A stretch of DNA of 64,000 bases from Parcubacteria group bacterium. Its GTDB lineage: Bacteria; Patescibacteriota; Minisyncoccia; UBA6257; UBA11618. The DNA lies in NCBI GenBank assembly GCA_943357895.1, contig CALRGO010000003.1:15389-79388 (forward strand), in the 5' to 3' direction. The position numbers were made by a program, and so were the translations under genes. The notes under the pieces were generated by a model that saw nothing but the letters and a program-made list of their open reading frames with translations, made no database searches and had not been told where the DNA came from. This document shows, in pieces, positions 13,608 through 60,805 of the stretch (positions within the stretch are counted from its first letter, which is position 1; each line of letters opens with the position of its first letter).

Positions 13608-13772
13608 ATGGAAGGCACTGATTCTGCAGACATTCTTTCAAGACGGTACGAACAAGGAAAAATCGGAATCAAAGGAGATCTACAATCGAAGAAAAAACGA
13701 CGCGTAGCGAAACGAAAAAGAAATGCAAAGAAAAAGTCCGGGCGCTACCAATTGGCGCGCGCTAATTGGTAA
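13608..13772 (+). CDS. Candidate small highly basic protein (54 aa; MEGTDSADILSRRYEQGKIGIKGDLQSKKKRRVAKRKRNAKKKSGRYQLARANW)
   Basis: Below the ORF-track cutoff. GAAGG 10 nt upstream of the ATG, a promoter-like sequence upstream and a strong terminator directly downstream. Confidence 0.4.
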   Translation: MEGTDSADILSRRYEQGKIGIKGDLQSKKKRRVAKRKRNAKKKSGRYQLARANW

Positions 13773-13788
13773 TTATCCGTCATAAAAA

Positions 13789-15173: not shown

Positions 15174-15258
15174 GGAAGGGTCGCATAGAGGCCTAGTGCA
15201 CCATCTTGGAAAGGTGGCATACCGAAAGGTATCGAGAGTTCGAATCTCTCCCCTTCCG
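15174..15258 (+). tRNA. tRNA-Ser (anticodon GGA), class II with long variable arm
   Basis: Hand-folded. Perfect 7-bp acceptor stem GGAAGGG/CCCTTCC and a 3-bp D stem. Anticodon loop TTGGAAA (anticodon GGA). Variable-arm hairpin ATACC-GAAA-GGTAT. T arm GAGAG-TTCGAAT-CTCTC with discriminator G. No CCA is encoded. Confidence 0.85.
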
Positions 15259-15266
15259 CAAATAAT

Positions 15267-19404: not shown

Positions 19405-20490
19405 TTACGCGCCATCATGCTCCCCTTCGTGCGGTTTTTCAAGCAAATTAACCTCAATACTCATGGCTGCGCCGCCAATCTTCAAAACGTCGCGATCAAT
19501 TTTCCCTAGCTCTTTTGCCGCCGCGTTCCACGCGTTTACCGTAGTCCCTAAGTGGCCACCCACTTTGCCAAAGTAACTTTCGTATGCCTTTAAGTGCCGG
19601 CCTAAGTCCTGCACGCGTTTGATGATGACCTCCACTTCCTTATGAAAATGCTCGCGGCGAATGCCTTGTATTACCGTCTGCAGATACGCAAGAAATGACG
19701 TAGGTGAAACGATTACCACCTTCTTATCTTTCATTGCGTACTCTATTAAATCCTGCGCGGCGCCGGCGCCTACGCGATTAACGAGTAAGTCATAATAAAT
19801 GGCCTCGGCGGGGATAAACATAAACGCAAAGTCCATAGTACCTTCTTGCGGGCGTACATATTTAGCCGTTTCGTCGATGCGATTTTTTAAATCCGCGCGG
19901 AACGCCTTTTCGAGTTGGCTGCGCTCTACGTCAGTCTTTGCCTCCACTAAGCGGTTATAGTTTTCCAAACTAAACTTAGAATCTATCGGGATAATCTTTC
20001 GATCCTCGCCCGCGCCATAAAAAACCACGGCGTCCACTATCTCGCCGTCTTTAAACGCGTACTGCATTTGGTACTGGCTGGGAGCAAAGACATTCTTTAG
20101 AAGCGTTTCTAAAAGATATTCGCCAAGTATTCCGCGCTGCTTCGGGTTCTTCAAAATATCCTCCAAGCCACGGATTTGCTCCATACCGAGCGCGACCTGC
20201 TTATTCGTCGCATCAAGCTTCACGAGTTTTTCAGTTACTTCTTTCATCATCGTCGCGCTCGATGCAAACTGCATATGAGACTGCTTATTAACATCCTGTA
20301 ATTTTTCATCAAGCGACTTACGGAGTAGCTCATTTGCGCGCGTAATTTCCGCTATCTGGTTTTGGAGCATTAAAAAGCCTTGCTCGGCGGACCGGTCGCG
20401 CGGCACGTCAAACTTAGACTTGATGAATAAAAAAAGTGCTATAAATCCAGCGATGATAATAACGGCTAGGGTGATGAGCGTATAATCCAT
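19405..20490 (-). CDS. rmuC: DNA recombination protein RmuC
   Basis: 361 aa with an N-terminal TM segment, coiled coil and RmuC C-terminal region. Confidence 0.8.
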   Translation of the reverse strand: MDYTLITLAVIIIAGFIALFLFIKSKFDVPRDRSAEQGFLMLQNQIAEITRANELLRKSLDEKLQDVNKQSHMQFASSATMMKEVTEKLVKLDATNKQVALGMEQIRGLEDILKNPKQRGILGEYLLETLLKNVFAPSQYQMQYAFKDGEIVDAVVFYGAGEDRKIIPIDSKFSLENYNRLVEAKTDVERSQLEKAFRADLKNRIDETAKYVRPQEGTMDFAFMFIPAEAIYYDLLVNRVGAGAAQDLIEYAMKDKKVVIVSPTSFLAYLQTVIQGIRREHFHKEVEVIIKRVQDLGRHLKAYESYFGKVGGHLGTTVNAWNAAAKELGKIDRDVLKIGGAAMSIEVNLLEKPHEGEHDGA

Positions 20491-30203: not shown

Positions 30204-30270
30204 AACAAAACCGCCACAAAGGGAAATCCTTATGGCGGTTTTGTCTATCCACTACTCACTACCCACTCCG

Positions 30271-31251: not shown

Positions 31252-31263
31252 TATTTTTTGAAT

Positions 31264-31299
31264 ATGTACTATTTTATGCGGTCGCATAGAATAGTACAT
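31264..31299. repeat. 36-nt near-perfect palindrome (family member P4; core TATGCGGTCGCATA)
   Basis: atgtactatt-ttatgcggtcgcatag-aatagtacat, with one mismatch. It lies 16 nt after the hpf stop. Confidence 0.75.
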
Positions 31300-31314
31300 A
31301 ATATCCAGAAACGC

Positions 31315-38225: not shown

Positions 38226-38693
38226 TTATGTATGCCGGTCGAGACGGCGCAAAATCTCCAAGATCATCTTATTCTGGTTTTCTAAGTGCTGGAGCACAAC
38301 CTCTATTTCGAATTCCGCCTTAGTATTTATTTCAAAGTCAGCCTCGGCACGCGCGTCCGAATGCCTGCCGTTTAAATTCTGACTAATCATTAAAAGCGGC
38401 ATCATCATAAGCTGAAAAATATTAACGATAAAAAGCCATAGCACGAACGCCGGATACGGGTCGAACCGCATCGGGGTGGGGGCAAGTATATTCCACCCAA
38501 GCCACAAAACGGTAACACATATAAGTGTCACAAAAAAACTCGCAGAGCCGATACAGCGCGCAATAGCAACTGCCACGCGATCAAGAAAAGAAAGCCGCTC
38601 CTTGTGCTCGATGTCCGTACGGCGCATCCTCTTACGTAAATGCTTCAGTTCGTTGAGCGTCGGCGGATTATGTAAAGAATATTCCATATACAT
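38226..38693 (-). CDS. DUF1003-like small membrane protein
   Basis: 155 aa with two TM helices and a charged C-terminal coiled region. Confidence 0.55.
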   Translation of the reverse strand: MYMEYSLHNPPTLNELKHLRKRMRRTDIEHKERLSFLDRVAVAIARCIGSASFFVTLICVTVLWLGWNILAPTPMRFDPYPAFVLWLFIVNIFQLMMMPLLMISQNLNGRHSDARAEADFEINTKAEFEIEVVLQHLENQNKMILEILRRLDRHT

Positions 38694-38752
38694 AAAATAA
38701 TATCACAAAATCAAAACAGTATAATAAAACTAAACTCACGTCTTATCCCCAC

Positions 38753-38788
38753 ATTATCGTCATATGCCGGTCGGCATATGACGATAAT
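38753..38788. repeat. 36-nt perfect palindrome P1: ATTATCGTCATATGCCGGTCGGCATATGACGATAAT
   Basis: Exact reverse-complement symmetry. 6 nt after the typA stop, and not followed by a T-run. Confidence 0.9.
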
Positions 38789-38793
38789 AGACC

Positions 38794-40587
38794 CTAGACT
38801 TTACGGCCGGCGCCCTTTAACTCACGCTTCCTGATGCGGATTGATTTTGGGGTCACCTCTACAAGCTCGTCGTCGCCGATGTATTCAAGTGACTGCTCCA
38901 AGGACATTACGCGCGGCGGAATTAAGTCGTCACTTACGGCTTCCGTCTTTGCACGGAAGTTATTTAACTGCTTTTCGCGGCAGACGTTCACAGATAAATC
39001 ATTATCCTTAGCGTGTTCGCCGCATACCTGCCCTGCGTAGACTTCTACCCCCGGCCCGATAAAGAGCACGCCGCGGTCGCGCGAGTTAAGTAAGCCATAG
39101 GCCGTCGTCGAGCCCGATTCATGTACTACGAGCGAACCATGCTTACCCGCCTCTATGGTTTCCCACTTAGGGAAGTAGCCGGCGAAGAGCGAGTTGATAA
39201 TCCCCTTACCTTTCGTGTCTATTATAAATTCGTTACGGAAGCCGATGAGTCCGCGCGTCGGCACGAAAAAGTGAAAATTAACGATGCCATTATCTACGCT
39301 CATATTGCGCATTTCGCCCTTACGGTTCGAAAGGCGTTCGATAACAATACCCGAATACGTTTCGGGTGCCTCGATCCACACGTCTTCCGCCGGCTCACAC
39401 ATCTTTCCGTCTTCAATCTTCATAATAACCTCGGGGCGCGAAACCTGCAGCTCAAAGCCGTCGCGACGCATTTTTTCTATCAAAATTGCTAAATGTAGTT
39501 CGCCGCGGCCGGAAACCACAAACTGATCCGGCGTGTCGCCCTCGTCAACGCGGAGCGCTACGTCACCATCGAGTTCGCGCATTAGGCGCTCACTGATGTT
39601 GCGCGACGTGCAGTACTGGCCTTCGCGGCCGGCAAACGGCGAATCGTTAACGCTGAAAATCATCTTCACCGTCGGCTTTTCTATGGTGATTGCCGGCAAC
39701 GCTTCAGGATTATCAATATCCGTCACCGTATCACCGATCGTAATGTCGGGAATACCCGAAAGCACGGCTATGTCGCCTGCCACGACCTCCGTGGCATCTA
39801 TCTTACCAAGACCAGAAAACATCATAAGCGAAGTGATCTTCGACTTACGTACCGTGCCGTCGTTTGCGACGATTGCCACCGGCTGAGTTGCCATAATTTT
39901 ACCGCGCGTCACGCGGCCAATACCGATCTTACCCTTATAATTATCGTACGATAAAGAAACTACCATCATCTGGAGCGGACCTTCCGACTGCGCCTTAGGG
40001 GCAGGAATATATTTCATGACCGCGTCGAAAAGCGGTACAAAGTCCGTCATTTTTTCCATCTCTGGCTCAAGGCCCGCCTTACCTAAACGGCCTGCAGCAT
40101 ATACTACGGGGAAATCGAGCTGCTCGTTTGTAGCGCCTAATTCTATAAAAAGCTCTAAAACCTTATCTAACGTGTAGTCGATGCGGGCGTTAACTTTATC
40201 TATTTTATTTACGACGACGATAATTTTATGTCCGATAGCGAGCGCCTTCTTAAGCACGAAGCGCGTTTGTGGCATCGGGCCTTCCTGCGCATCAACTAAT
40301 AAGAGCGATCCGTCTGCCATGTTCAAAACGCGCTCTACCTCGCCGCCGAAGTCGGCGTGGCCGGGAGTATCGATAATATTAATTTTCGCGTCTTTATACT
40401 GCACAGCCGCATTTTTAGAGAAAATGGTAATACCACGCTCACGCTCGATGTCGTTAGAATCCATTATCATTTCCACACCCGCCGACTTCCCTAAATCCGT
40501 ATTCGTCTGCTTTAAAAGACCGTCGACAAGAGTGGTCTTGCCGTGGTCGACGTGGGCGATAATAGCGATATTCCGTATGTCTGCCAT
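38794..40587 (-). CDS. typA: Translational GTPase TypA/BipA
   Basis: 597 aa, [10 protein letters not shown]-loop, EF-G-like domain organisation with the BipA C-terminal domain. Confidence 0.9.
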
Positions 40588-59334: not shown

Positions 59335-60103
59335 GATTTAATAGCCTCTGCCACACGAAGAAATTAATAAGGGCTATCGAGCCGACCAAAAAGACGACAG
59401 CGGTTATGAACGTGCCAACTTCCCCCGCTACTACGGAATCGACGAGTATGCTCCCTATACCGTACAAATCGTCCGCGCCCGTGCCGAACGGAATATAGGT
59501 ATGTAAAACTTCCGCAACGATGATGATGTTCCACCCCTGCGCCCACGCAAGAAGCGACCCCGTAACCAAGGACGGCGTAACGGCGGGTAAAAGCACGCGC
59601 CGGCCGTATGCCCACCCCCGTACACCAAATACCTTTGCCGCCCACGAAATGTCGCGCGGGATCGCCTTTAGCCCCGCAACGAGACTGAAGACGATATTCC
59701 AAAGCATGGAAAGGAAAATAACGAATACCGCCGCCGCATCCGTTAGCCCGAACCGCAAGAATATCCCCGCAATAAGCGGAAAAAAGGCGAGTACAGGAAT
59801 AGACTGCATGACGTCGAAAAACGGCAGAAATATATTCTCAGCGAGCGGGCTACGGCGCGAAAGAGCAACCAACGGAACGGCGGCGGCAAGTGCTAAAATA
59901 TACGCAATAAAAAGACGCGTCAGCGTGGCGAAAAAAGCGCCGGCAACGTACGACGCAGGCAAAGAAACGCTAGACCCAAACGGAAAAAGTGAAACGGCGC
60001 GAAGCGCGACCAAAAGCACGAGCACCGAAACAACGGGAATAAGCGCAGAATGAACGCGCGCAAAAAAAGTTTTAGGCGTAGGTGCGTTGCCATGAATAAC
60101 CAT
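59309..60103 (-). CDS. ABC transporter permease (NitT/TauT family, SsuC/TauC-like)
   Basis: Six TM helices and a BPD_transp_1 pattern. Start placed at ATG 60103, which has TATACT 6 nt upstream. The track's TTG start is at 60121. Confidence 0.8.
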   Translation of the reverse strand: MVIHGNAPTPKTFFARVHSALIPVVSVLVLLVALRAVSLFPFGSSVSLPASYVAGAFFATLTRLFIAYILALAAAVPLVALSRRSPLAENIFLPFFDVMQSIPVLAFFPLIAGIFLRFGLTDAAAVFVIFLSMLWNIVFSLVAGLKAIPRDISWAAKVFGVRGWAYGRRVLLPAVTPSLVTGSLLAWAQGWNIIIVAEVLHTYIPFGTGADDLYGIGSILVDSVVAGEVGTFITAVVFLVGSIALINFFVWQRLLNHAEKYRFE

Positions 60104-60194
60104 AGATATAGTATACACCAAGAAAAATAACCCCCACTATCCACTGTTTTCTGAATCCAACTCGCCTACCCCGAAAAACAAAAGTTATCCACAG

Positions 60195-60230
60195 ATTATC
60201 GTTATATGCCGACCGGCATATAACGATAAT
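60195..60230. repeat. 36-nt perfect palindrome P2: ATTATCGTTATATGCCGACCGGCATATAACGATAAT
   Basis: Differs from P1 only at symmetric positions (C/T plus partner; centre GA-CC vs GG-TC). 36 nt after the dsbB-like stop. Confidence 0.9.
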
Positions 60231-60265
60231 GAATTATTTTATCACTCTTATGCATCCCGTATTTA

Positions 60266-60805
60266 TTAGTTTTTATGCCTATGCACTCTGCCCGCAGCGA
60301 GGGTCGCCGCGATAAGCGCGAATGCGGTTAAAGACATTACGGGGATCGTCACGTAGCCAAACATGATAAAAAATATGCGAGCGCATGATTCACCCGAGGT
60401 GGGGCAGGGAATGAATGTGTTACCACCCAACTGGACGAACCAGTTGTACGCGGCGACACCAGAACCGATTATTGCGGCGAGAAGCGCAACGCCCTCGGTG
60501 CGCCGACTACCCCCGAGCCATGCGTAAAGTAAAATAAACGGCAATGGAAACATGAATACGCGTTGAACTACGCACAAAGAACATGGCGGAAAACCAGCGA
60601 CTTCGGAATAAAAAAGACTCGCGAGCACGGCGAAGAGGGATATAAAAAAGGCAACGGCGGGGGCATGCATACGGAGTATCCGGTGTACTATCCACTCACC
60701 TTTTTTATGAAATATAACGGACAAAGCAATTACAATAATCCCCGCTTCGGCAACTATTGTAAGCGCCGAAAGCGCATATGTAAGAAATTCGACGGACGGT
60801 GTCAT
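60266..60805 (-). CDS. Disulfide bond formation protein B family (DsbB/BdbC-like)
   Basis: Four TM helices with Cys pairs in the predicted outer loops (PPCSLC, IPCPTSGESC). Confidence 0.7.
   Translation of the reverse strand: MTPSVEFLTYALSALTIVAEAGIIVIALSVIFHKKGEWIVHRILRMHAPAVAFFISLFAVLASLFYSEVAGFPPCSLCVVQRVFMFPLPFILLYAWLGGSRRTEGVALLAAIIGSGVAAYNWFVQLGGNTFIPCPTSGESCARIFFIMFGYVTIPVMSLTAFALIAATLAAGRVHRHKN

Follow-up and report, generated by a model that had tools for sequence, protein, structure and literature searches.

The stretch of Parcubacteria DNA analysed in our study (the window, 64,000 nucleotides) carries the palindromic sequence ATTATCGTTATATGCCGACCGGCATATAACGATAAT at positions 60195-60230 (P2), together with a second, near-identical copy at 38753-38788 (P1). 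All the genes neighbouring the two copies lie on the minus strand. P1 begins 5 nt past the typA stop codon (38794-38796, minus strand) and is located ~60 nt upstream of a DUF1003 gene; P2 begins 35 nt past the stop codon of a DsbB-like gene and is located ~90 nt upstream of an ABC permease gene. P2 was found where a preliminary description of this DNA had placed it, and the two copies are not due to chance, as shuffled windows gave 0 comparable matches (0.00 expected). The features of the two spacers, in order of position, are the following:

38694-38793, minus strand: spacer between typA and the DUF1003 gene, 100 nt, which contains P1
38743-38752, minus strand: tail of P1, GTGGGGATAA in gene sense and TTATCCCCAC on the plus strand, with 8 of 9 positions of the DnaA-box consensus
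38753-38788, no strand assigned: palindrome P1, perfect 17-nt arms, with the centre GT on the plus strand
60106-60265, minus strand: spacer between the DsbB-like gene and the permease gene, ~160 nt, which contains P2 (stop codon at 60266-60268, likely permease ATG at 60103-60101)
60137-60145, minus strand: weaker box-like motif AGTGGATAG (gene sense) in the P2 spacer, whose membership in the element is uncertain
60185-60194, minus strand: tail of P2, CTGTGGATAA in gene sense and TTATCCACAG on the plus strand
60195-60230, no strand assigned: palindrome P2, perfect 17-nt arms at 60195-60211 and 60214-60230
60212-60213: centre of P2, AC on the plus strand and GT on the gene-sense minus strand, asymmetric

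The arms of P1 and of P2 are complementary at 17 of 17 positions, with 2 nt between them. The preliminary description had presented both copies as perfect 36-nt palindromes with a self-complementary centre, a statement that has to be corrected: each copy consists of 17-nt arms around two asymmetric nucleotides, P2 and its reverse complement disagree at 2 positions, and the central sequences GGTC (P1) and GACC (P2) are reverse complements of each other and not of themselves, the central GT being inverted to AC. The same description had attributed all differences between the copies to compensatory substitutions. This is accurate for position 9, where the change from C to T is mirrored by a change from G to A at position 28, so that a C:G pair has become a compensated T:A pair, but not for the centre, which is an inverted asymmetric dinucleotide. 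If substitutions were independent, the chance that a second arm change would fall on the partner position with the complementary base would be ~0.01, and the chance that all four changed sites would form two mirror pairs with matching bases would be ~3e-4, both figures being post hoc and based on one compensated pair and one inversion.

The region alignment shows that the shared repeat reaches 10 nt further to the left on the plus strand, after which the similarity stops. The plus strand of this tail reads TTATCC(C/A)CA(C/G) in the two copies. Read in gene sense, the 17-2-17 palindrome is followed, with no gap, by the 10-nt tail (G/C)TG(G/T)GGATAA, in which the complement of a DnaA box, TG(G/T)GGATAA, begins 1 nt past the palindrome. 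The repeat unit is asymmetric and ~46 nt long, and the conserved one-sided tail that makes it so had been absent from the preliminary description. Over this unit P1 and P2 are identical at 42 of 46 positions, with unrelated flanks, and the orientation of the centre relative to the tail is opposite in the two copies. As RNA, the predicted hairpins have energies of -23.6 kcal/mol for P1 (z = -7.6) and -21.3 kcal/mol for P2 (z = -7.1); the predicted DNA hairpin of P2 has an energy of -14.6 kcal/mol. Further along the P2 spacer, the AGTGGATAG motif ends 21 nt upstream of a TATACT -10 hexamer at 60110-60115.

In ~81 kb of genome the unit occurs twice, both copies being extragenic, single and 21 kb apart. 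No third copy was identified when the window, a further 20 kb of flank and 266 kb of related sequence were examined by mismatch search, nhmmer and our covariance model (R1). Scanning species-representative genomes for the half-site, a short pattern, returned 117 chance or coding matches, none of them palindromic, among which a conserved coding stretch of Saccharibacteria was taken to be gatB. Two metagenome scans of the JGI set, with the core and with the tail plus arm, gave 0 matches, and the species that hosts P1 and P2 appears to be absent from that set. Three scans of viral contigs produced chance matches only, and BLAST against plasmids and phages returned nothing relevant. Rfam assigned P1 and P2 to no family at either gathering or permissive thresholds; the only matches were sub-threshold ones to generic hairpins (miRNA). 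It is worth recording for this window that ARAGORN identifies a tRNA-Ser(GGA) at 15174-15259 and that the Rfam scan of the whole window at the gathering threshold returned no match, not even to the tRNA model.

The gene content of the surroundings was inspected as well. Genes for a transposase, a RAYT, another HUH enzyme or a recombinase are absent from the window and the fetched flanks (~81 kb), and around P1 and P2 there is no relaxase or Rep gene and there are no paired left and right ends enclosing such a gene. No target-site duplication and no conserved target sequence are visible at either copy. The GC skew is negative across the whole window, with no origin-like switch, on which ground an origin (oriC) or replication terminus at P1 or P2 was rejected; judging from this skew, the strand that carries the hairpin followed by the tail would lie on the lagging-strand template.

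Both sites were compared with those of related genomes. The window itself matches ~108.7-172.7 kb of a 206-kb ENA contig. MAGs such as those of Harrisonbacteria and Liptonbacteria share ~70% identity with the TypA encoded in the window, and closer relatives are available for both spacers. Between the DsbB-like and permease genes, four relatives whose permeases are 83-89% identical to that of the window (L143, L144, L146 and L157) have a spacer of 24 nt, versus ~160 nt here, that is, ~136 nt less. Their short spacer corresponds approximately to a TGGTATACT promoter followed by a leaderless start, and the long P2 spacer retains the same -10 element at its 3' end. The DNA inserted at P2 (~136 nt) is far longer than the 46 nt shared with P1. 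At the site between typA and the DUF1003 gene, L138 and L139 (TypA 95%) have a 51-nt spacer with a canonical terminator, L141 (TypA 96%) has 29 nt, and L140 has an extra gene. As a separate observation, the promoters of this clade resemble an extended -10 (TGnTATACT), the ATG comes 6-7 nt later and there is no Shine-Dalgarno sequence (60110-60115 and 60101-60103 in the window; also L143, L146 and L141), a layout that suggests leaderless mRNAs.

Presence also varies among strains. P1 is identical in L118, L119, L120 and L122 and is missing from L121 and L124. These last two are 99.8% and 99.6% identical to the window through typA, over the aligned stretch, and their DNA homology is gone exactly at the typA stop codon, which is the edge of P1; their DUF1003 protein is only 83% identical. 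Comparing 38693-38794 with L121 7812-8032 thus reveals a sharp recombination breakpoint between strains; downstream of it there is no DNA homology, and L121, L138 and L141 have other genes there, of 130, 156 and 253 aa, together with a T2SS-like cluster. Two contigs from one sample (L123 and L127, ERZ27280192) end precisely at the edges of P1 and P2. P2 is identical in 10 contigs from independent assemblies; strain SNPs in its spacer number 4 in the other 114 nt and 0 in the 46-nt unit, a contrast that is not significant, and with P2 invariant in these 10 strain contigs there is no within-species variation for testing the model. An assembly artefact was rejected, since the palindromes lie within contigs and more than 10 independent assemblies have them in identical form. 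Past the end of the window, directly after the malic-enzyme gene (L125 1-8000, ~65.6-73.6 kb in window coordinates), there is a series of hypothetical genes with no Pfam hits, including one for a lysine-rich 257-aa protein; the relatives examined have other genes there, and the region could represent an island specific to the strain.

Between this lineage and its relatives, identity at the four-fold degenerate sites of typA is 56-59%. Because P1 and P2 are identical at 42 of 46 positions, against that neutral level, the palindromes are recent and copy-pasted. These results show that both copies sit in lineage-specific insertions and that the unit has been copied between two unrelated intergenic sites.

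In a sister lineage (L165; TypA 92%), the place between typA and the DUF1003 gene holds a different palindrome with the same centre and tail, TTTTCTTTTTTTAGCG-GT-CGCTAAAAAAAGAAAA, followed by CG and then by TGTGGATAA. This sequence, P1 and P2 align gap-free in a common 17-2-17-plus-tail register. The arms of L165 are 53-59% identical to those of P1 and P2 (9-10 of 17 positions), about the level of the typA four-fold sites (56%), so that arm identity alone lies at the neutral level. In the aligned register, even so, 16 of the 17 pairs of L165 are Watson-Crick, the outermost pair being unpaired, and across the three sequences 9 of the 17 pairs are invariant, 7 have changed on both sides and 0 on one side only. 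There is no G·U pair in the 50 paired cells of L165, P1 and P2. This level of covariation was reached by 0 of 500 shuffles, and the pairing was destroyed when the partner columns were slid. The CG-GT-CG core is kept in L165, and the tail is identical at 9 of 10 positions, versus 56% at neutral sites.

Two control sets support the association of the palindrome with the tail. Among 916 kb of unrelated loci there were 290 box matches, 0 of which adjoin a palindrome with arms of at least 10 nt; in viral contigs, core and tail co-occurred by chance at the same spacing 42 times, with at most 8 of 17 pairs. On the basis of its architecture, centre, tail and position, we infer that the L165 element is homologous to P1 and P2. 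The preliminary description had argued that drift alone would break the symmetry, which holds and is strengthened by L165 with its seven pairs changed on both sides and none on one. It had also set covariation in aligned copies, as in a hairpin, against half-site conservation, as in a dimeric binding site: in the three-sequence alignment the covariation goes beyond every shuffle, while 7 of the 17 half-site positions vary. The family members found are these three only, and function is inferred throughout for them.

Our preferred reading, to which we give a probability of roughly 45%, is that P1 and P2 are copies of a low-copy dispersed element with a REP-like architecture, that is, a DNA hairpin with a tag on one side, which is copied between intergenic sites and remains palindromic through DNA-level processes. 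What is recognised or maintained would be the DNA itself, folded into a hairpin or cruciform, together with the adjacent sequence tag, a combination that is the architecture of REP elements and of the substrates of other hairpin-binding HUH enzymes. The differences between P1 and P2 would have arisen by intrastrand or interstrand template switching: a single C-to-T change may have been copied onto the opposite arm (arm homogenisation), and the 2-nt centre may have been inverted (spacer inversion). Template switching between the arms of inverted repeats has been reported to make the arms uniform and to invert the spacer, each in a single mutational event (PMC8604942, PMC8794818). Selection is not required, since template switching yields both of the signatures observed. 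What the preliminary description had read as selection for symmetry must consequently be divided: some force does keep the arms complementary, but template switching suffices for this without selection. Neither G·U pairs nor half-compensated pairs occur at all, which is easier to reconcile with maintenance of the DNA than with selection for pairing in an RNA helix.

It is important to consider that, because the copies lie 5-35 nt past stop codons, they are transcribed, each as a probable 3' hairpin. The transcribed copies could have a secondary role in which the mRNA is stabilised, or in which there is weak attenuation or insulation between the tandem genes. From this position, the P1 and P2 hairpins probably act secondarily as 3'UTR hairpins, as REPs of E. 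coli do; REPs have been described as 3'UTR terminator-stabilisers that vary between strains (bioRxiv 10.64898/2026.03.23.713779). Several observations count against the preferred reading. A high-copy family lacks support, with 2 copies in ~81 kb and none in 266 kb of related sequence; there is no gene for a transposase, RAYT, other HUH enzyme or recombinase in the window and no target-site duplication; and the insert of ~136 nt compares with a unit of 46 nt. The neutral level of arm identity in L165, the polarity of the tag, which is unlike that of REPs, and the invariance of P2 among strains count against it too.

A second reading places the function in duplex DNA. According to it, the unit is a regulatory or chromosome-organising site in which the tail would be a genuine DnaA box and the dyad would be bound by partners of DnaA or by a dimeric regulator, and the module would control the downstream promoters (those of the DUF1003 and ABC permease genes) or block transcription from the upstream genes. 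We consider this unlikely. The tail speaks for it: TTATCCACA is matched at 9 of 9 positions in P2 (60185-60193) and in L165 and at 8 of 9 in P1, the P2 tail is the sole perfect DnaA-box 9-mer in the window, and the tail is conserved at 9 of 10 positions against a neutral background of 56%. The perfect dyad symmetry with no G·U pairs is also what a duplex site would present, as is the invariance of P2 in the 10 strain contigs next to 4 SNPs in the surrounding 114 nt, although the difference between 0 in 46 nt and 4 in 114 nt is not significant. GTGGATAR motifs, moreover, are biased to intergenic regions and to the gene-sense strand. The window contains four of them (5' bases at 60192, 60144, 30252 and 60695); every one is on the gene-sense minus strand, three are intergenic, and their total is not above expectation (4 observed, 3.8 expected); the one at 30245-30253 directly precedes a canonical terminator.

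Several observations count against a duplex site. The orthologous spacers of all close relatives (L138, L139, L140, L141, L143, L144, L146 and L157) lack the unit, which rules it out as a conserved regulon site. Family members disagree at 7 of the 17 half-site positions. The tail is 19 nt from the -10 element in P1 and ~68 nt from it in P2, so this spacing is not constant. The window shows no enrichment of boxes with at most one mismatch (11 found, 10.4 expected), and no origin-like switch in GC skew accompanies the copies. The symmetric sequence-specific protein site that the preliminary description had offered as one of two functions fits poorly for the first two of these reasons. Similarly, the dyad symmetry expected of an operator for a dimeric transcription factor is present in P1 and P2, but neither the half-site nor the orthologous sites are conserved. 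A resemblance of the flanks to a Fur box or an IHF site, noticed by eye, is not common to both copies and was rejected.

The tails of P1, P2 and L165 do resemble a DnaA box in their match to the consensus; here, there is a single putative box, with no cluster and no oriC context, and its position beyond the stem would leave it single-stranded upon extrusion of the hairpin. DnaA boxes can occur in transposon ends or act as transcription roadblocks. The identity of the tail with this putative box is the most intriguing unexplained feature of the unit. A bolder possibility, which we hold to be rather improbable, is that a perfect hairpin with a freely varying stem, single-stranded or cruciform on the lagging-strand template and joined to a genuine DnaA box, represents an undescribed class of DNA element in CPR/Parcubacteria. 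Such a module might be mobilised by a hairpin-binding enzyme that uses DnaA as a host factor, or it might couple replication (DnaA) status to transcription at gene boundaries.

That the unit is an RNA element under selection is likewise quite improbable. In this explanation, the 3' hairpin of the typA and dsbB transcripts would terminate transcription in a non-canonical way, stop 3' exonucleases or be a site for RNase III, and the compensatory change would reflect selection on RNA pairing. The copies are indeed placed 5 nt and 35 nt past stop codons, their predicted hairpins are very stable (-21 to -24 kcal/mol, z near -7), and L138 has a canonical terminator at the position of P1. A change from C:G to U:A could also pass via a tolerated G·U intermediate; nevertheless, none of the 50 paired cells holds a G·U pair. 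No U-tract follows the hairpin on the gene strand, whereas the other terminators of this genome are canonical hairpins with an A-run, a GC stem and a T-run, and the L165 stem has its U-run on the 5' side and its A-run on the 3' side, the reverse of a terminator. In addition, the loop is flipped between the copies (GACC versus GGUC), no Rfam family was matched, and the conserved single-stranded tail has no obvious role in an RNA. Terminator scans of the minus (gene) strand reported neither P1 nor P2, and P2 scores on the antisense strand only, with a weak tail. An intrinsic terminator has a GC-rich hairpin with a U-tract 0-2 nt behind it on the transcribed strand; P1 and P2 are like one in having a stable hairpin directly downstream of a stop codon, and they differ from one in the AT-rich base of the stem and the missing gene-strand U-tract. 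The RNA hairpin function suggested in the preliminary description fits poorly with the absence of G·U pairs and of a gene-strand U-tract and with the flipped loop.

The copies might also be a neutral by-product, namely one spacer duplication by illegitimate recombination, with template switching keeping the palindrome and the match to the DnaA box being a coincidence. The low copy number agrees with this, as does the fact that no partner protein was found, and template switching alone can create and maintain perfect stems (PMC8604942, PMC8794818). On the other side, the tail and the CG-GT-CG centre have been kept in L165 even though the arms have diverged to the neutral level, the same architecture is present at two loci and in two lineages, and no variation is seen in the fixed element across at least 10 assemblies. 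We judge a neutral origin to be distinctly doubtful.

Very unlikely, finally, is a recombination site or hotspot, in which the palindrome would be the core site of a recombinase or a fragile cruciform and would explain the strain differences that start there: strain homology ends at the edge of P1, the ERZ27280192 contigs end at the edges of P1 and P2, a third palindrome (31263-31300) marks a drop in strain identity from 99.1% to 95.5%, and the asymmetric centre is inverted between the copies, but no recombinase gene lies nearby, the geometry is 17-2-17, whereas arms of 11-13 nt flanking a spacer of 6-8 nt would be expected, the housekeeping genes that fill the 21 kb from P1 to P2 keep the order they have in relatives without the sites, and breakpoints at gene ends are expected anyway because homologous recombination stops where divergent spacers begin. 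The core sites of tyrosine recombinases (lox/dif) have inverted arms of 11-13 bp, an asymmetric spacer of 6-8 bp and a cognate recombinase, whereas only 2 nt are asymmetric in P1 and P2. The possibility that the copies are attL and attR of an island at 38.8-60.2 kb was rejected, given that the intervening genes are housekeeping genes and are syntenic in relatives without the sites.

Other palindromes were noted in the window. The one at 31263-31300 is not a terminator and has an 18-2-18 arrangement with one mismatch and the centre GT; its inner core, TATGCG-CGCATA, resembles that of P1 and P2. It is flanked by the stop codon of S30AE (31315) and by what is likely the true start of truB (31252), at a place where strain L119 has an 11-nt Shine-Dalgarno spacer instead, and the drop in identity between L118 and L119 mentioned above falls exactly there. 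It was rejected as a member of the family, as model R1 gave no match. At 13746-13778 there is a 26-nt palindrome, TACCAATTGGCGCGCGCTAATTGGTA (plus strand), with one mismatched pair, and a GGATAA (13773-13778) is placed one base 5' of that palindrome on the gene-sense strand, just downstream of a canonical terminator; the order of box and then palindrome is the reverse of that in P1 and P2. The window also encodes a protein of the RmuC family (19405-20490). A role in restraining rearrangements at short inverted repeats has been connected with this family, and the gene is noteworthy in a genome where perfect palindromes accumulate.

Much is known about dispersed palindromic repeats and their enzymes in Proteobacteria; our literature searches found no description of such repeats in the reduced genomes of Patescibacteria. 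The hairpin-plus-tag inserts have expanded minimal spacers (from 24 nt to ~160 nt), which indicates that streamlined genomes still gain non-coding DNA, and the element marks places of recombination between strains. Our study also provides a caution for the discovery of RNAs by covariation: a compensated stem free of G·U pairs, with a flipped loop, is an output of template switching at the DNA level, and since this process produces such stem changes they are not proof of selection on RNA. If the tail that matches a DnaA box were functional, binding of the replication initiator would be linked to hairpins at gene boundaries, which would be new.

Regarding known systems, a CRISPR repeat or a TIGR stem-loop array was rejected: such repeats form tandem arrays interleaved with spacers beside cas or tas genes, whereas the copies here are isolated, and no array, cas gene, tas gene, Cas protein or Nop-domain protein is present. 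The subterminal hairpins of IS200/IS605 elements and the oriT or dso hairpins on which HUH relaxases and Rep proteins act are similar to our unit in combining a hairpin with an adjacent conserved single-strand sequence, in leaving no target-site duplication, and in the placement of the hairpin-then-tail strand on what would be the lagging-strand template; they differ in that the 21 kb between P1 and P2 is filled with housekeeping genes. The family of REP, BIME and REPIN elements offers more points of likeness: these are short extragenic hairpin repeats with a conserved tag on one side of the hairpin foot, REPs occur directly after stop codons between tandem genes, their presence varies between close strains, and a 3'UTR hairpin is an expected side effect of them. 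Nevertheless, REPs are imperfect palindromes that need a mismatch bulge for RAYT binding and carry a GTAG 5' of the hairpin (PMC3479197). They are mobilised by RAYT Y1-HUH transposases, whose gene usually has REPs on its flanks, and a genome holds many extragenic REPs, frequently arranged as inverted doublets. The arms of our elements are paired at 17 of 17 positions in P1 and P2 and at 16 of 17 in L165, with no such bulge, and their gene-sense 5' flanks (GTCT, ATTC and GTTG) show no conservation and do not carry GT[AG]G. The polarity is also different, the 10-nt tag of P1 and P2 lying 3' of the hairpin on the GTGG-bearing strand, and the copies are single, two in 81 kb, with no inverted doublets and no RAYT gene seen in those 81 kb. 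Given a perfect, unbulged stem, the missing 5' GTAG and the lack of a RAYT gene in the 81 kb, we describe P1 and P2 as having a REP-like architecture and not as REPs. Template-switch inverted repeats, for their part, are the result of a mutational process and not a class of element, and template switching leaves unexplained the copying to a second locus and the conservation of the tail; both of its hallmark outcomes, a mirrored arm substitution and an exact spacer inversion, are nonetheless present in P1 and P2.
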